Shown here in pieces: positions 3,391-10,789 of a stretch of 64,000 nt of DNA. The stretch covers positions 123 to 64,122 of the forward strand of contig CANPVU010000002.1 in the NCBI GenBank assembly GCA_947581765.1, written 5' to 3'. The notes below the pieces were generated by a model. The model ran no database searches, was not told the origin of the DNA, and worked only from the letters and a program-made list of their open reading frames with translations. Origin of the DNA: an uncultured Bacilli bacterium. Its GTDB lineage: Bacteria; Bacillota_I; Bacilli_A; RF39; UBA660. The translations under genes and the position numbers were made by a program. The number at the start of each line of letters is the position of its first letter. Position 1 is the stretch's first letter.

Positions 3391-5833
3391 ATGGATCATT
3401 TCTACCTATTTTATTAACTCTCTTTGGAGATGCTTTCTTCACTTTAGACTCATCTTGATTTGTTGATATATTTTTAGCTACTTCTTTACGTTCAGTATTT
3501 TGTCTTACTTCTGCTTTTAATAAGTATACAGATGTTTGTTGATCAATTTTAGCTAATAATTCATCAAATAACTCATATCCTTCACTTTTATAAGCCCTAA
3601 GTGGATTTTCTTGAGCATAACCTCTTAAATGTATTCCCTCACGTAAGTGAGACATAGTATTAATATGTTCCATCCAATATGTATCAATAACTCTTAATGA
3701 AATAGCTTTTTCAAAATCACTAACTATTTCATCAGGTAATTGTGATAATTTTTGATTGTATTTATCAAGTACACATTCATATATAACATCAGAAGTATTA
3801 TCTATAGAATTAAAATCAAAATCTTCATCATGAAGTTCAATGTTTAATTCATTTTTAAAGAATGCTTTTATTTCTTCTGCATCTTCATCATTAAACTTTC
3901 CATCTAATGTATGTTCAAATACAACATCATCTATGTAATTTTTAATACTTTCAAGTACTGTATCATGAACTGACTCACTATCAAGTATACTATTACGTCT
4001 TTCATATATAATTTCACGTTGTTCATTTATAACATTATCATATTCAAGTAATGTTTTACGTACATCATAGTTATTACCTTCAACTCTTTTTTGAGCAGTT
4101 TCAATTGATTTAGCTAATGCAGAATTACGAATTGCTGCATCACCAGCAAATCCAGCACGAGCTAACAATCCTTTAGCGCGATCTGCACCAAATCTAACCA
4201 TAAGATCATCTTCAAATGATACACAAAATTGTGAAAATCCTGGATCTCCCTGACGACCAGAACGACCTCTTAATTGGTTATCTATACGTCTTGATTCATG
4301 CCTTTCTGTACCAATTACACATAAACCACCTAATTCTTTTACACCTTCACCTAATTTAATGTCTGTTCCACGACCAGCCATATTAGTAGCAATTGTAACT
4401 GCACCTTTTTCACCGGCATGTGCTATTATTTCTGCTTCTCTTGCATGATTTTTAGCATTTAATACTTCATGTGGTATTTTAGCTTTTTTAAGCATATCAC
4501 TTATTAATTCACTTGTTTCAACAGCTATTGTACCTACAAGTACTGGTTGTCCTTCTTTATGTCTGTCTTTAATTTCATTAACTATAGCCTTATATTTTCC
4601 TTCTTTAGTTGCGAATATTAAATCTTTATAATCATTTCTTATAACAGGTTTATTTGTTGGAATACATATAACATACATATTATATATATCCCTTAATTCT
4701 TCTTCCTCAGTTTTTGCAGTACCTGTCATACCAGATAATTTCTTATACATACGAAACAAATTTTGAAATGTAATAGTAGCTAAAGTTTTAGTTTCTTCAT
4801 TAATAGTTACTCCCTCTTTAGCTTCTATTGCTTGGTGTAATCCATCAGAATATGAACGTCCTTCCATTAAACGTCCTGTAAATGAGTCTACTATTACTAT
4901 TTTATCATCTTTAACAACATAATCTACATCATTATGCATAGCATAATTAGCTTTTAATGCTTGATTAATAAAATGTACTAAATCTGTATTTTCTATATCA
5001 TATAAGTTCTTAACATTAAATGTTTTTTCTGCTTGTTCTATTCCTTTTTGATCTAAAACTGTAGCTTTAGTTTGTTCGTCATATATATATCCATCATCAA
5101 GTTTCAATGATTTTACAAATTTATCTGTTTGAATATATAAATCAGCAGATTTCATATGTCCTCCAGATATAATAAGTGGAGTTCTTGCTTCATCTATTAA
5201 TATTGAATCAACTTCATCAATTATAGCAAAATTTAATTTTCTAGCTACTCTATTTGCTGAATTTACAACCATATTATCTCTAAGGTAATCAAAACCAATT
5301 TCATTGTTTGTAGAATAAGTAATATCACAATTATATGCTGCCTGTTTTTCAGAAGTTGAAAGTTCACGTAAATTAACTCCTACTGTTACGCCTAATAATT
5401 CATAAACAGGTCCCATCCATTCTGCATTACGTGTTGACAAATATTCATTTGTAGTAATTACATGAACACCTTCTCCAGATAAAGAATTCAAATATGCTGG
5501 TAAAACTGTAGTTAATGTTTTTCCTTCACCTGTTTTCATTTCTGCTATATTACCATAATGTATTGCAAATCCACCTACTACTTGTACAAAATATGGCTTT
5601 TCTCCTAAAACTCTATATGCTGCTTCTCTAGCAGTAGCAAAAGCTTCTATTTTTATATCTTCTAATGTTTCTCCATCTTCCAATCTTTGTTTAAATTCAT
5701 CAGTTTTAGCTCTTAATTCTGCATCAGATAACTTAGAGTATTCATCTTCAAGTGCTAAAACTTGATTTGCTAATGATTCAAATTTTTTTAATTCTTTTGC
5801 TTCATGACTAAATAATCTCTTAAATATATTCAT
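3344..5833 (-). CDS. secA: Preprotein translocase ATPase SecA
   Basis: Contains MKTGEGKT, DEVDSILIDEARTPLIISG and the C-terminal zinc motif CPCGSGKKYKNCCGK. ATG at 5833 was chosen because AAAGGAGAG lies upstream; the ORF-track start is 5899. Confidence 0.97.
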   Translation of the reverse strand: MNIFKRLFSHEAKELKKFESLANQVLALEDEYSKLSDAELRAKTDEFKQRLEDGETLEDIKIEAFATAREAAYRVLGEKPYFVQVVGGFAIHYGNIAEMKTGEGKTLTTVLPAYLNSLSGEGVHVITTNEYLSTRNAEWMGPVYELLGVTVGVNLRELSTSEKQAAYNCDITYSTNNEIGFDYLRDNMVVNSANRVARKLNFAIIDEVDSILIDEARTPLIISGGHMKSADLYIQTDKFVKSLKLDDGYIYDEQTKATVLDQKGIEQAEKTFNVKNLYDIENTDLVHFINQALKANYAMHNDVDYVVKDDKIVIVDSFTGRLMEGRSYSDGLHQAIEAKEGVTINEETKTLATITFQNLFRMYKKLSGMTGTAKTEEEELRDIYNMYVICIPTNKPVIRNDYKDLIFATKEGKYKAIVNEIKDRHKEGQPVLVGTIAVETSELISDMLKKAKIPHEVLNAKNHAREAEIIAHAGEKGAVTIATNMAGRGTDIKLGEGVKELGGLCVIGTERHESRRIDNQLRGRSGRQGDPGFSQFCVSFEDDLMVRFGADRAKGLLARAGFAGDAAIRNSALAKSIETAQKRVEGNNYDVRKTLLEYDNVINEQREIIYERRNSILDSESVHDTVLESIKNYIDDVVFEHTLDGKFNDEDAEEIKAFFKNELNIELHDEDFDFNSIDNTSDVIYECVLDKYNQKLSQLPDEIVSDFEKAISLRVIDTYWMEHINTMSHLREGIHLRGYAQENPLRAYKSEGYELFDELLAKIDQQTSVYLLKAEVRQNTERKEVAKNISTNQDESKVKKASPKRVNKIGRNDPCPCGSGKKYKNCCGK

Positions 5834-5907
5834 TTGATACTCTCCTTTTGCATATAAATATATTATATCAATTATTCGTTTAAAATCATAGTAATTCAAA
5901 GAAATTT

Positions 5908-5941
5908 ACAAAAAAACAAAAAATAGGCTTTTTGCCTATTT
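5908..5941 (-). terminator. Rho-independent terminator after hpf
   Basis: Stem AATAGGC/GCCTATT (5922-5928 with 5934-5940), followed by a long T-run on the minus strand. Confidence 0.75.
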
Positions 5942-6466
5942 TGTTTCTATAATACCATAATTTCCATCTTTTCTTTGATATAATACATCAACATCTCCTG
6001 TATCTACATTTTTAAATACAAAGAATTCATGTCCTATCAAATTCATTTGAAGAATTGCCTCTTCTTCACTCATTGGTTTCATTTCTATTTCTTTTCTCTT
6101 CACAATTGTTTGCTCCGTTTCATCTTTTAAGTCCTCAAAGCTTAAATCAAAACCAATAGTTTCACTCTTATTTACACGCTTTTGCATTCTTGTCTTATTT
6201 TTTCTAATTTGTCTTTCTAACTTATCTGACACTATATCTATTGCTGCGTATAAATCTTCATGACGTTCCTCACATCTTAGAACAATTTTTTGGATTGGAA
6301 TAGTTACTTCTACAATTTGATCTCTACCAACAATTCTAATTACTACTTTAGCAGTTATATCTTCAGGATTTGATAAATATTTATCTAATTTACCAATTTT
6401 TTCCTCAATATACTTCTTTATTGGTTCAGTAACCTCAACTTTCTTCCCATGAATATTAAACTTCAT
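5936..6466 (-). CDS. hpf: Ribosome hibernation promoting factor, long form
   Basis: N-terminal S30AE-like region (MKFNIHGKKVEVTEPIKKYIEEK) and a C-terminal dimerisation region (PMSEEEAILQMNLIGHEFFVFKN). Confidence 0.9.
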   Translation of the reverse strand: MKFNIHGKKVEVTEPIKKYIEEKIGKLDKYLSNPEDITAKVVIRIVGRDQIVEVTIPIQKIVLRCEERHEDLYAAIDIVSDKLERQIRKNKTRMQKRVNKSETIGFDLSFEDLKDETEQTIVKRKEIEMKPMSEEEAILQMNLIGHEFFVFKNVDTGDVDVLYQRKDGNYGIIETK

Positions 6467-6530
6467 AATTATCATTCCCTTCCAATTACATTATATCACA
6501 TAATATGAAATTTCTTTATATAATTTTAAC

Positions 6531-6556
6531 AAAAAAATGTAGACATCATCTACATT
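6531..6556 (-). terminator. Rho-independent terminator after the cold-shock gene
   Basis: Stem AATGTAGA/TCTACATT with a 5-nt loop, followed by T7 on the minus strand. Confidence 0.7.
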
Positions 6557-6559
6557 AAT

Positions 6560-6775
6560 CTAAACTAATGTTGTTTTTATTTCTTCAACATTCTTTGCTT
6601 GTAATCCTTTAGCGGTATTAATAAGTTCAAAGTTTACATATTGACCTTCAAGTAAAGATCTATATCCTTTTGATTTAATAGCAGAATAATGAACAAATAT
6701 ATCATCTTTTCCTTCTACCTCTAAAAATCCATAACCTTTGTCATTATTAAACCATTTAACTTTTCCACTAATCAT
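6560..6775 (-). CDS. cspA: Cold-shock protein, CspA family
   Basis: Carries the RNP motifs KWFNNDKGYGFLE and DIFVHYSAI. Confidence 0.93.
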   Translation of the reverse strand: MISGKVKWFNNDKGYGFLEVEGKDDIFVHYSAIKSKGYRSLLEGQYVNFELINTAKGLQAKNVEEIKTTLV

Positions 6776-6835
6776 TTAATCATCCCTCCTAGAATAATTA
6801 TAACATGTATTAAGTCCATTGATAGAGTAAAGAAG

Positions 6836-6864
6836 TTGACAAAAATCGACATTTTTTGTATAAA
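6836..6864 (+). promoter_or_regulatory. Sigma-A-type promoter facing agrB
   Basis: TTGACA (6836-6841), 17-nt spacer, TATAAA (6859-6864). A perfect 14-bp palindrome TTTTGTGCACAAAA lies downstream at 6892-6905. Confidence 0.55.
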
Positions 6865-6978
6865 ATTATTCTTTTTAATTTAATTATTATGTTTTGTGCA
6901 CAAAATTGATGATTACAAACATATAATATTTGTTTTAAGTTAATTTAAATATATAATGGACTCATGGAGGTAAATTGT

Positions 6979-7596
6979 ATGAGAAAAAGAGTAGTAACAC
7001 TAATAACAAACTATATAAAAAAATATAAGGATTTAGATAAAGATAGCGAAGAAGTAATTATATATGGTTTAGAATCATTATATATTTTGATAACAAAGGT
7101 AGGTATGATTTTCATTTTAGCAGCAATACTAGGAATATTTAAAGAAACTTTTATATTTCTCTTATGCTTTAATGGAATTCGAGCATTTGCTTTTGGTTTA
7201 CACGCTACAAAAAGTTACATTTGCTTTATAGTTTCAACGATTGTATGTTTAGCGTTACCCTATTTAGCATCCTCTATCACAATTTTACAAATGTATAAAA
7301 TCATTATTGGAGTTATATGTACTTGTTTAATCTTTAAAAATAGTCCAGCTGATACTCATAAAAGACCAATTGTAAATCCTGTTAAAAGAAAAAAATTTAA
7401 AATAATTTCAACTTTAATTTCTATTTTTTATGTTATTTTATCACTATTTATAAATTCTTTTATAAGTAACTGCTTACTATTTAGTTTAATAGTAGAATCA
7501 ATTATAACTGCTCCTTTTACATATAAATTATTTAAGCTTCCATATAATAATTATATAAAATATTTAGAAGAGGAGGATGAAAATGTTTTTTGCTAA
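6979..7596 (+). CDS. agrB: AgrB-family membrane peptidase that processes the autoinducing peptide
   Basis: Polytopic membrane protein with FAFGLHATKSYICF, matching the conserved His/Cys pair of AgrB. GGAGGT lies 7 nt upstream of the ATG at 6979. Confidence 0.85.
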   Translation: MRKRVVTLITNYIKKYKDLDKDSEEVIIYGLESLYILITKVGMIFILAAILGIFKETFIFLLCFNGIRAFAFGLHATKSYICFIVSTIVCLALPYLASSITILQMYKIIIGVICTCLIFKNSPADTHKRPIVNPVKRKKFKIISTLISIFYVILSLFINSFISNCLLFSLIVESIITAPFTYKLFKLPYNNYIKYLEEEDENVFC

Positions 7597-7699
7597 TTTA
7601 TTAAGTGGATTTGCTACTTTATTTGCCAGTGAATGTTCTAATAAATGTTTAGTTCTTATCATTGACGAACCAAAATGTCCAAAAAGTTTAATTAAATAA
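7583..7699 (+). CDS. agrD: AgrD-like autoinducing peptide precursor; not in the ORF track
   Basis: Translates to MFFANLLSGFATLFASECSNKCLVLIIDEPKCPKSLIK. It has a hydrophobic N-terminus, Cys plus 4 residues, then an acidic/Pro tail (DEP..PKSL). AGGAGG at 7571-7576 lies 6 nt upstream, overlapping the end of agrB. An alternative ATG is at 7577. Confidence 0.75.
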   Translation: MFFANLLSGFATLFASECSNKCLVLIIDEPKCPKSLIK

Positions 7700-7703
7700 A
7701 TAT

Positions 7704-7726
7704 AACACCCTTGCTGGGTGTTTTTT
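7704..7726. terminator. Bidirectional terminator between the convergent agrBD and kinase genes
   Basis: Stem AACACCC/GGGTGTT with loop TTGCT. T-run on the plus strand and a T-rich tract on the minus strand. Confidence 0.7.
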
Positions 7727-7728
7727 GT

Positions 7729-9018
7729 TTATCTATTTATTTGAAGTACTTGAGTAAATTCATCAGAATTAATTTCATGATGGGTACGTAATTTAGAATT
7801 ATTTTTAACTAATTTTTTTACAAGTGATAATCCATATCCATGATTTCCACCCTTAGTACTAACTCCTGCTTTATATATGTCATCCTTTTTTATTGACGTA
7901 TCAAAAATATTTGTTATTAATATATTAAAAATATTATCTTCGTTATACATTTCAATTATAATATATTTCTCATTTAACTTATCAACTTCTTCTATTGCAT
8001 TATCCAAAAATATACCAATTATTTTACAAATATCCAACATAGTTTTCTCACCATAATCCAATAAATCTACTAATCTTACTGAACTAGATAATTCTAAATC
8101 ATAATCAATATTTTTATTTTTCATAAGTAACAATTTTGAATATATTAAACCTCTTAATCCACCACTTGGAATCATACTAGTTTCATGCATAATATTTTTA
8201 TCATCCTTTAGTTTATTATCCAATATAGTATCAATAAATTTAATTATTTTCTTACTAGTTGTCATATTTCTAATAGTCATAAGTTGATTTTTATTTTCAT
8301 GATTATCTATTCTATGATTAGTAAGTACATTTTCTAATTCTCTTAAGCTTACTAAACTACTATTATATTTATCAGATACTTTATAATAATCATTTTTAGT
8401 CTTAAAGAATAAACAAATAAATACAAATGAAATTATAGATATAATTAATGAAAAAATTGTTAAAAGTGATGGATTTAACAATGAAAAAGTATTTAAAGTT
8501 AAAATTCCATATATAAATAAAACAATTACAGATAAAAAAATTATAAATGTTTGATTCAATCTTTCTGTAGCATTGTCAAAGAAGTAATATAATTTTTTTA
8601 CTATTGGAATTTTAGATATTACTAATGAACAAAATGAAATTGATGTATTAGCAATAAAACTACCAAAATAATTATTGATAAATTTATCAGTATTATTTTT
8701 TAATAATATCATTAATATTAGCGCAAAAACAGATTCACTAACCATATATATTATTTGAGTAATAATTGGTCCAGTTAACGAGTTCTTTAAATTAACATCA
8801 AATAAAATTTTATATATTAAAATCAATATAATAGTTGTATTTATCGCTTTCAATGTAGCATGAATATTAAAATAGTTAATTAAAATTACTATACTAGCTC
8901 CCAAAATTATGAAAAGAGTTCTTAATTTAAACCATTTTATCTTTTCTGTTGACCAACTATTCCAAATTGTAAAAATTATTATTACCATAATAAAAGATGA
9001 AATTATTGTTCCAATCAT
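7729..9018 (-). CDS. agrC: AgrC-like sensor histidine kinase (multi-TM sensor plus GHKL ATPase)
   Basis: The N-terminal ~200 aa are hydrophobic with multiple TM segments. The C-terminus reads FLDNAIEE and STKGGNHGYGLSLVKKLV. It overlaps the upstream LytTR regulator gene by 4 nt. Confidence 0.8.
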   Translation of the reverse strand: MIGTIISSFIMVIIIFTIWNSWSTEKIKWFKLRTLFIILGASIVILINYFNIHATLKAINTTIILILIYKILFDVNLKNSLTGPIITQIIYMVSESVFALILMILLKNNTDKFINNYFGSFIANTSISFCSLVISKIPIVKKLYYFFDNATERLNQTFIIFLSVIVLFIYGILTLNTFSLLNPSLLTIFSLIISIISFVFICLFFKTKNDYYKVSDKYNSSLVSLRELENVLTNHRIDNHENKNQLMTIRNMTTSKKIIKFIDTILDNKLKDDKNIMHETSMIPSGGLRGLIYSKLLLMKNKNIDYDLELSSSVRLVDLLDYGEKTMLDICKIIGIFLDNAIEEVDKLNEKYIIIEMYNEDNIFNILITNIFDTSIKKDDIYKAGVSTKGGNHGYGLSLVKKLVKNNSKLRTHHEINSDEFTQVLQINR

Positions 9019-9722
9019 TTAACCACCATTCTCTCTATGTACTTCTTTGAAACTAATTTAGTGCTTGTCCCATTATCAAACGTTACACTCATTTCTTTAT
9101 GACTTATAACCTTTATTCTATTTTTATTAACAAAACAAGCTCGATGTATTTGAATAAATTCTTCACCTAATTCTTTAATAACTGAATTAAGATTAATACG
9201 TAATTTGTATATATCATTATCACATACAATTACAGATTGTCTACCAATTGTATCCCTAGTAACATAAAGAATATTATCAATATCAATATTATAAATGTTT
9301 CTTCCAGATTTTAAAGTAATTCTTTTTTTCTTTCCAACTAAAGATATAGCAATCGATAAACTACTAGTTAAATGTCTTTCTAAATTATCAAATTTATTTA
9401 TGAAATTTAGAATCATTAAATTTTTTTTAGCAACTATCCTAGATAAATCATCATGTGCACTCAAAAAAATAATTACACTTGTATAATCATTTTTTCTTAT
9501 TATACGTGCAACATCTATACCAGACATTGTAGGCATTTCAATATCTAAAAGATATATTTTGTTTGATATATCCGAATTCAATATTTTCATAAAATCTTTA
9601 TCATAATCATTAAATATATAAATTTTATGTTCAAAATTCTTTAAACTTTTTTTTACTATTTTTTCTACTTTATTAGCATCCCTTAAATTATCATCACAAA
9701 TTATTATGTTAATCATACACAA
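9015..9722 (-). CDS. agrA: LytTR-family response regulator, AgrA-like
   Basis: Receiver domain (IIICDDN, LLDIEMP) and a C-terminal LytTR-like region (ILYVTRD, IQIHRACFVNKNRI). The start is TTG at 9722 or ATG at 9716. Confidence 0.85.
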   Translation of the reverse strand: MCMINIIICDDNLRDANKVEKIVKKSLKNFEHKIYIFNDYDKDFMKILNSDISNKIYLLDIEMPTMSGIDVARIIRKNDYTSVIIFLSAHDDLSRIVAKKNLMILNFINKFDNLERHLTSSLSIAISLVGKKKRITLKSGRNIYNIDIDNILYVTRDTIGRQSVIVCDNDIYKLRINLNSVIKELGEEFIQIHRACFVNKNRIKVISHKEMSVTFDNGTSTKLVSKKYIERMVVK

Positions 9723-9732
9723 AAAAAGAAAA

Positions 9733-10344
9733 CTAATGATAATTTTCTTTTACCGTTTGTTTTATACGAGCGACTGCAAGAGAATTATCTGGGACATCTT
9801 CTGTTATTGTAGAACCAGCAGCTATAACAGAATTTTTTCCCAATTTTAAAGGTGCTAATAAATTTGCATTACAGCCTATAAAAGCATTGTCCAAAATTAT
9901 TGTTTTCTCACGTTCTCCTACTTTTGAATCAACTTTTTTATTTACTGTAATAACACCACAACCTATGTGGACATTATCATTTACACATGCATTACCAATA
10001 TATGACAGATGAGGGATTTTATTACCATTACCTATTTCATTTTCTTTAAATTCAACGAAACTACCTAAGCGATTATCATTACCAATTATATTTCCTTCTC
10101 TTATATATGCATATGGTCCAATTTTGTTGTTATCACCAATAGTACTACTAATTATATATGAAGTATATATTTCATTGTTTTTACCTATAATAGAATCTTT
10201 TATATAACTTCCCATATATATAGTAGTGTTATCGCCTATTATTGTATTTCCCTCTATAAAGACATTAGGATATATAGTACAATTATTTCCAATTTTAACT
10301 GTATCTTCAATGTATGTATTATTCTCATCAATAAATTTTATCAT
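9733..10344 (-). CDS. Left-handed beta-helix acetyltransferase matching only the C-terminal half of GlmU
   Basis: Hexapeptide repeats throughout. The C-terminus (IGCNANLLAPLKLGKNSVIAAGSTITEDVPDNSLAVARIKQTVKENY) resembles the GlmU tail. There is no uridyltransferase domain, and the rplQ terminator lies upstream. Confidence 0.7.
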   Translation of the reverse strand: MIKFIDENNTYIEDTVKIGNNCTIYPNVFIEGNTIIGDNTTIYMGSYIKDSIIGKNNEIYTSYIISSTIGDNNKIGPYAYIREGNIIGNDNRLGSFVEFKENEIGNGNKIPHLSYIGNACVNDNVHIGCGVITVNKKVDSKVGEREKTIILDNAFIGCNANLLAPLKLGKNSVIAAGSTITEDVPDNSLAVARIKQTVKENYH

Positions 10345-10418
10345 ACAATCACATCCCTACCATAATAAATTATACCATATAATATAACAAAATTAATAAA
10401 TAAATTTAATTAAATAAC

Positions 10419-10445
10419 AAAAAAAAGATGCTCTACTTAGCATCT
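10419..10445 (-). terminator. Rho-independent terminator of the alpha operon, overlapping the rplQ stop
   Basis: Stem AGATGCT/AGCATCT with a 6-nt loop, followed by T8 on the minus strand. Confidence 0.8.
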
Positions 10446-10789
10446 CCTTCTACTAATTCTAAAATTACCATTAATGCATCATCACCACGACGTTCAGATA
10501 ATTTTAAAATTCTTGTATATCCACCATCACGTTTTTCATAACGTTTTGCTAAATCATCAAAGATTTTACTAACTGTTTTAGCATCATTATGTAAGAAAGC
10601 TAATGCCTTTCTTCTTGAAACTAAAGATCCATCTTTACCATAAGAAATTAGCTTTTCAACAAATTTACGTACTTCTTTAGCACGAGTTTCTGTTGTTTCA
10701 ATTCTTTCGTTATTAATAACATCTTTAGCTAAATTAGCTAGCATACTTCTTCTATGTTTATTAGTACGTCCTAATTTTCTATAAGCCAT
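10433..10789 (-). CDS. rplQ: 50S ribosomal protein L17
   Basis: Begins [20 protein letters not shown]. Last gene of the alpha operon. Confidence 0.97.

Follow-up and report, generated by a model that had tools for sequence, protein, structure and literature searches.

A conserved agr-type quorum-sensing locus and its diversifying AgrD peptide in an uncultured RF39-type bacterium

This article concerns four genes in a 64,000-nucleotide stretch of DNA from an uncultured Bacilli bacterium of the RF39 type (contig CANPVU010000002.1 of assembly GCA_947581765.1; the whole stretch is called the window below). A first-pass annotation, made by a model from the DNA letters, had read them as an agr-type quorum-sensing locus and had proposed that a small, unlisted open reading frame (ORF) behind agrB encodes AgrD, the precursor of the signal peptide. 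Both proposals stand. The small ORF passes the AgrD family model, overlaps the end of agrB and is conserved at about 100 loci through synonymous codons. The locus is a bona fide agr-type system whose peptide NCBI's own model recognizes, and from what the sequences tell us it very probably forms a functional agr circuit with this AgrD. It adds nothing categorically new to the agr field. Its worth lies in conservation across a whole lineage, in the extreme diversification of the peptide core and in a possible output through a cold-shock gene, csp.

The signal genes lie on the plus strand, at the positions that the first-pass annotation had given for agrB and the ORF directly after it. agrB (6979–7596, with a GGAGG 8 nt upstream of its start) encodes a membrane cysteine peptidase/cyclase of 205 residues, which matches Pfam PF04647 at 125.7 bits against a cut-off of 23 (E = 1.7e-36) and which is polytopic by hydropathy, with several hydrophobic helices. 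AgrB of Staphylococcus aureus requires R70, G75, H77 and C84 (PMC10196373). The equivalent residues here, R68, G73, H75 and C82, are invariant in 15 aligned relatives. The small ORF scores 26.8 bits on NCBIfam model TIGR04223 (quorum_AgrD; cut-off 19, E = 4e-06). Read from 7577 it gives MKMFFANLLSGFATLFASECSNKCLVLIIDEPKCPKSLIK; read from the ATG at 7583 it runs to 7699 and gives the 38-residue precursor MFFANLLSGFATLFASECSNKCLVLIIDEPKCPKSLIK, which begins MFFANLL. The second start is likely the right one, because a GGAGG at 7572–7576 abuts 7577 but sits 6 nt before 7583, and because the relatives hold the 38-residue form, as does a public collection in which this very peptide is already a predicted protein. 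agrD overlaps the end of agrB by 14 nt, and the two genes would be translationally coupled.

Relatives carry much of the case. A pattern scan of GTDB species genomes gave 488 stretches encoding a relative of the window's AgrB, of which 80 were fetched; the related loci were retrieved with an AgrB alignment as query, a single AgrB sequence having found none in the contigs. Where a relative's contig is long enough, agrB is followed by an AgrD in essentially every case. It was recovered from 107 fetched stretches, some of them repeat fetches of one genome, in 82 distinct C-terminal versions. The first-pass annotation had named a lack of conservation beside agrB homologues as something that would speak against its reading, and the ORF proves to be conserved. 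The consensus of the 82 versions runs GSQA, a cysteine, five hypervariable hydrophobic residues and then DEPECPKSLIK and the stop codon, with the cysteine, variable core and acidic, proline-bearing follower of an AgrD. Seventy-two of the distinct versions have this five-residue spacing, and among them are 70 different cores, with an entropy of 2.4–3.0 bits at the five core positions. The ring Cys is invariant, the Asp (71 of 72) and Glu (72 of 72) behind the core scarcely vary, and there is little or no variation at Pro33 (the second proline of the follower), the Leu and the final Lys. These conserved residues use several synonymous codons (Ser, for instance, is written AGT, AGC, TCA or TCT), which shows selection on the protein. 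The follower has a cysteine of its own (Cys32 in the window, 7676–7678; DEPE-C-PKSLIK), which is Cys in 56 of the 72 versions and Met in 9. We know of no such conserved Cys in the followers of characterized AgrDs.

What would AgrB make of this precursor? With His75 and Cys82 as its catalytic residues, it would cut the 38-residue AgrD between Ile27 and Asp28 and join Ile27 to Cys22, giving the predicted ring Cys22-Leu-Val-Leu-Ile-Ile27 (7646–7663, plus strand). The first-pass annotation had predicted a five-residue thiolactone, CLVLI, which is the less likely product: five hypervariable residues, not four, separate the Cys from the invariant Asp-Glu. By analogy we lean toward CLVLII, and we do so because the change from variable to conserved residues comes exactly before Asp-Glu, the mark of the cut in S. 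aureus, where AgrB cleaves AgrD between M32 and D33 and where D33 and E34 are essential (PMC10196373). Some autoinducing peptides (AIPs) have six-residue macrocycles (PMC12312760), and two such rings are proven, that of Ruminiclostridium cellulolyticum (CWFWSY) and that of Clostridium acetobutylicum; both are tail-less and both rearrange to lactams (PMC8251862).

The same system could nonetheless produce the canonical ring CLVLI, with AgrB cutting between Ile26 and Ile27 and one hydrophobic residue left before Asp-Glu. Most characterized AIPs are five-residue rings (PMC12312760). Nor is the distance from the Cys to Asp-Glu fixed, so ring size may not follow it: in one subclade of the same genus, 10 versions (at loci L008–L014, L016–L018, L096, L115 and L119) have six hydrophobic core residues, as in EIGC-IFLVLL-DEPECPKSLIK. 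We still judge the shorter ring unlikely, though it is the alternative that fares best. The residue before the Asp varies as much as the rest of the core (2.43 bits), whereas a follower residue recognized by AgrB should be conserved; the S. aureus cut comes directly before the essential Asp-Glu; and a six-membered ring is confirmed in C. acetobutylicum. The C. acetobutylicum precursor has the spacing Cys plus five residues plus x-Glu-Pro. By the logic that gives the window a six-residue ring, the subclade with the longer spacer is predicted to have rings of seven. Several members of that subclade also have a cysteine four residues before the ring Cys. The window has one too (Cys18), as the first-pass annotation had remarked, and it recurs in part of the genus; it replaces the family Gly, and the same change is found in several of the longer-spacer relatives (STCEIGC). 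The finished ring may bear a short N-terminal tail, or, if tail-less, could rearrange to an all-amide ring as in the clostridia. For removal of the leader there is a candidate in the one membrane protease of the CPBP/Rce1 family, the family of MroQ, that the genome encodes, unlinked to the locus.

The receptor genes occupy the opposite strand, the regulator before the kinase, and converge on agrBD; here too the placing agrees with that of the first-pass annotation. The AgrC-like sensor histidine kinase (7729–9018, minus strand; 429 residues) has about six hydrophobic segments in residues 1–205, an H-box with His240 (NHENKN) and a GHKL domain. Its HATPase_c_5 domain, at 53.7 bits against a cut-off of 22 (Pfam, E = 2.1e-14), is that of the AgrC-type (HPK10) kinases, and its only matches among solved structures are S. 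aureus AgrC (4BXI, E = 4.6e-10, and 6E52). The AgrA-like response regulator is also on the minus strand (9015–9716), overlapping the kinase coding region by 4 nt. Its start is likely the ATG at 9716; a TTG at 9722 is the first in-frame start and would give 235 residues. The receiver domain (Response_reg, E = 2.9e-10) and the C-terminal LytTR domain (E = 5.7e-14) both exceed their Pfam cut-offs, the acidic pocket (CDD) and the Asp of LLDIEMP are visible in the sequence, the solved-structure matches include ComE (4CBV) and the LytTR domain of AgrA (3BS1), and the best NCBIfam model is AgrA.

A comparison with the kinase's two nearest relatives is telling. The sensor half is 37–42% identical and the catalytic half 67–70%, a divergence about twice as fast in the sensor half, which is what one would expect if it co-varied with the peptide. 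Between the regulators of the window and of loci L023 and L024, the LytTR domain is 47% conserved and the receiver domain 70–72%; the lower figure fits a drift of the repeat-box sequence between subclades. In the closest relative, at locus L022 (G007:C7, 2955–4221), the kinase is matched in two reading frames that meet at 3448/3449, through a frameshift or an assembly error.

The first-pass annotation had named this pair the cognate receptor. In the host assembly (1.22 Mb in 37 contigs, 87% complete) AgrB and the LytTR protein each occur once and there is a single clear kinase of the HPK10 type with HATPase_c_5, so the adjacent kinase and regulator, as the only clear HPK10/LytTR pair in the genome, are a plausible receptor for the agrBD peptide. 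The kinase would sense the secreted peptide through its polytopic sensor domain and phosphorylate the regulator by way of His240. It could be argued instead that this pair reads some other signal and that the agrBD product is sensed by a different receptor or only by other species. The two operons are, after all, separate and on opposite strands, no repeat boxes precede the receptor operon, and in Clostridium perfringens an unlinked two-component system, VirS/VirR, is reported to read the Agr peptide (PMC7492741). We think this very improbable, given that about 100 genomes keep the four genes together, that the genome has no second LytTR/HPK10 system, that the kinase's sensor half shows hypervariability to match that of the peptide and that repeats of the regulator's type stand in front of agrB. 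That the small ORF is a chance frame, or the locus a decaying remnant that no longer signals, might be suggested by the reduced genome and by the kinase of relative G007, which seems split between two frames, yet it is barely credible when the ORF passes the AgrD cut-off and is conserved through synonymous changes and when all four genes of the window are intact with their catalytic residues.

How the circuit might be controlled can be read from the spacer between csp and agrB. Comparison of this spacer in 77 loci brought out a recurring pair of 10-mers, consensus TGTCTGAAAT, with 11 nt between them, an arrangement of the LytTR type. The window's pair lies at 6891–6921: on the minus strand it reads TGTTTGTAAT, 11 nt, TGCACAAAAC, and on the plus strand the boxes are GTTTTGTGCA (6891–6900) and ATTACAAACA (6912–6921). 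It is the best match to the paired matrix in the 64 kb, scoring 16.6 where shuffles of the intergenic region reach 6.8 at most; when the window is left out of the matrix the score is 15.6. In the relatives a proximal pair of like orientation stands at -86 to -99 from the agrB ATG, and in 17 of the 18 loci with such a pair a -10-like hexamer lies 29–30 nt from the box edge. In the window a TATAAT (6952–6957, plus strand) lies 30 nt downstream of the proximal box, so that the predicted site has the AgrA-type geometry of paired repeats, about 21 bp apart, upstream of a promoter. From this we infer that TATAAT is likely the -10 of an autoinduced agrBD promoter with its start near 6964. The 10-bp direct repeats would control agrBD, and the regulator, binding them, would raise agrBD transcription.

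This is not the promoter that the first-pass annotation had picked out. It had placed a strong promoter at 6836, and the site in question, TTGACA, 17 nt and TATAAA (6836–6864, plus strand), lacks the T at the last -10 position and is absent from the listing of a promoter scan, which found no excess of promoter-like sites at all (37, with 42 expected). The TTGACA is also an unlikely regulated agr promoter in that it lies across a conserved repeat element, T(T/C)GACA (TCGACA), that keeps its place by csp even where a duplicate of csp comes between it and agrB. The 14-bp palindrome TTTTGTGCACAAAA at 6892–6905 is perfect, as had been claimed, yet in DNA so rich in A and T it does not rise above chance: perfect palindromes of 14 bp or longer number 9 in the window, and 13 ± 3.4 in composition-matched simulations. 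It is not conserved in the relatives and it overlaps the distal repeat box, and we reject it as a separate operator.

No repeat pair is found upstream of the window's regulator gene, and only 7 of 61 such regions in relatives reach the same score, so the receptor unit is, on this evidence, probably not autoinduced and any positive feedback would act on the signal only. High-scoring repeat pairs do stand before the receptor operon in two subclades, at -98 in L053, L054, L080 and L099 and at -115 to -123 in L055, L094 and L102; it is apparently only there that autoinduction of the receptor arose or persisted. An attempt to predict the regulon was unsuccessful. The matrix is AT-rich and of low information, and almost all sites that a genome-wide scan placed above the agrB site are in coding regions.

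Several points weigh against the reading we prefer, a complete circuit with a CLVLII signal. The score of 15.6 ranks about 20th in the 1.22-Mb genome, most of the higher-scoring sites lying inside genes, and the window's boxes, TGTTTGTAAT and TGCACAAAAC, are a mediocre match to the family consensus. The cut site is placed by analogy, and a ring of five with one extra residue before Asp-Glu is possible. The residues before the ring Cys are ECSNK where the family has GSQA, and leader processing may differ in the window. Finally, both receptor proteins, for which AgrC and AgrA are the best named NCBIfam models, fall far short of the staphylococcal equivalog cut-offs: the kinase scores 43.4 bits on the AgrC model NF046015 (cut-off 500) and the regulator 48.3 bits on the AgrA model NF046049 (cut-off 400). 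The kinase is a homologue of the AgrC kind, not an orthologue of the staphylococcal protein.

The circuit we envisage is divided into two convergent units, agrBD for the signal and regulator and kinase for the receptor. Between them lies a GC-rich hairpin, AACACCC-TTGCT-GGGTGTT (7704–7722), that is common to both operons. The shared terminator of the first-pass annotation is borne out, the hairpin being called as an intrinsic terminator on both strands by a scan that counted 4 terminator-like sites in 4.1 kb where 0.4 would be expected. The genes do not form the canonical single operon of B, D, C and A, agrBD being read from the plus strand and the regulator and kinase genes, in that order, from the minus. 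That contrast had been drawn before us, and rightly, but separate agrBD and agrCA operons are already known from some clostridia (PMC12312760), which makes the layout a variation rather than a novelty. Upstream of the regulator gene, at a distance of 10 nt, is a gene for a hexapeptide-repeat acyltransferase (9733–10344, minus strand; Hexapep, E = 8.3e-32), and beyond it come rplQ and then rpoA (from 10433, minus strand), with a terminator after rplQ at 10451–10420. The acyltransferase gene probably heads the transcription unit of the regulator and kinase, and the three would be cotranscribed, probably constitutively. It is present in part of the genus only, being absent from G006, G019 and most of the family, and is therefore not an integral part of the agr locus. 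Nor does the locus have a recognizable RNAIII: Rfam gave no meaningful family match in 5800–10600, where the divergent neighbor of agrB is csp, and its only match, a sub-threshold coronavirus pseudoknot inside agrB, we take to be chance.

The setting of the locus is constant. Every locus with sufficient contig reach has the order secA, hpf and csp leftward, agrB and agrD rightward, then kinase, regulator, the acyltransferase gene (where present) and rplQ, all leftward. The same arrangement with the same flanks recurs in about 100 related genomes, and csp adjoins agrB wherever the fetched DNA extends far enough upstream. Because the order is constant across the relatives, we regard the convergent, regulator-first layout as an old, vertically inherited feature of the lineage and not a rearrangement. 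The usual co-directional order appears in G038, a genome of the same class but less closely related. Across 41 genomes (the window's own and 40 relatives), 23 have AgrB homologues; these take in most of the host genus and family and almost none of the other families of the class. The 80 fetched stretches come from uncultured gut assemblies labeled Bacilli, Tenericutes, Mollicutes or Erysipelotrichaceae, from rabbit, human, chicken, goat and other hosts. Among them is Candidatus Faecisoma merdavium, whose genus NCBI places in Mycoplasmatota incertae sedis and its describers assigned to the GTDB order RF39 (PMC8035907). In the literature searched, no paper connected AgrD with RF39, Mollicutes or Tenericutes.

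It is csp that brings us to a possible output. The gene encodes a cold-shock-domain protein (6560–6775, minus strand; CSD, Pfam E = 1e-24) and diverges from agrB. A further repeat pair, of inverted orientation, is found between -150 and -165 from the agrB ATG in 46 relatives, and 32 of these have a -10 element facing csp (often TGnTAnAAT) 29–30 nt from it. Beyond this -10 come a conserved stretch, then a TGTCGAATTTT element and then csp's own proximal promoter. Together the pair and the -10, at -150 to -200 from the agrB ATG in relatives L045–L120, make a putative divergent promoter like P3 of S. aureus, after which one subfamily has a conserved ATGTTTTC(C/T)TAAAG. The divergent promoter of the relatives mirrors the P2/P3 arrangement of S. 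aureus, with csp in the place of RNAIII. Our tentative proposal is that in the RF39-type lineage, with its predicted six-residue rings (seven in the sister subclade of the genus), the agr regulator may also act on a second promoter that faces csp, making an RNA chaperone a direct output of the circuit and perhaps bringing in the gene for a ribosome-hibernation factor behind it. In the window's own subclade the spacer between csp and agrB is about 200 nt, and the window has only a weak, mis-spaced second pair (6837–6866, score 9.3), 34 nt from csp's TGTTATAAT. A link to csp in the window's genome is doubtful.

The T(T/C)GACA element (TGTCGAATTTT on the csp strand) merits a few words of its own. 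It lies some 45–60 nt upstream of the extended -10 of csp, at 6836–6851 in the window, and in L048, L050, L053, L057 and others it comes in two or three copies with an 11-bp period; the TTGACA once taken for a -35 is one such copy. Where a second copy of csp has been inserted, the element stays with csp. The spacer between csp and agrB grows to 560–570 nt in the loci with that second copy (L053, L054, L080, L099, L100, L103 and L112). In L048 it reaches 2.25 kb, with a second csp-like stretch and an insert of about 1.4 kb between near-identical inverted repeats, possibly a mobile element.

Bacteria of the RF39 type, uncultured and with reduced genomes, are common in the guts of humans and animals. 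That they have retained a complete circuit at a fixed, inherited locus says that density signaling matters to them. Nearly every species has a peptide core of its own, which yields concrete synthetic peptides for probing these bacteria or for aiding their culture. The locus offers, in addition, an extensive natural collection of peptides with their receptors and, in csp, a candidate output that is not RNAIII.

Where does this leave the locus among known agr systems? With agrBDCA of S. aureus and its P2/P3 promoters it shares the same four protein families and the matching catalytic residues of AgrB. In both, the AgrD follower opens with Asp-Glu and goes on to x-x-x-Pro-Lys-x-Leu, the peptide core and the sensor half of the kinase are hypervariable, and agrB is preceded by LytTR direct repeats with a 21-bp period. 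It differs in having two convergent operons in place of one, with the regulator gene before the kinase gene, in receptor genes that are apparently not autoinduced, in the absence of an RNAIII found by Rfam, in the five residues from Cys to Asp-Glu where S. aureus has four, and in a kinase and a regulator that lie far below the staphylococcal equivalog cut-offs. The clostridial systems of C. acetobutylicum and R. cellulolyticum (Rc-AIP1) resemble it in that agrBD and agrCA can be separate (PMC12312760) and in the hydrophobic ring of six that we predict, for which CWFWSY is a counterpart (PMC8251862), with a tail-less lactam rearrangement possible. Unlike the locus described here, clostridial operons are not described as converging across one shared terminator, and a further difference is the conserved Cys that the follower has here (DEPECPKSLIK). 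The host, moreover, is a non-sporulating, reduced-genome bacterium of the RF39 type, to which the clostridial outputs of sporulation and granulose do not apply. Listeria monocytogenes (agrBDCA) and Lactobacillus plantarum (lamBDCA) are, like the host, Bacilli with a single-copy system and without an equivalent of RNAIII (PMC12312760), but theirs are canonical four-gene operons with five-residue rings.

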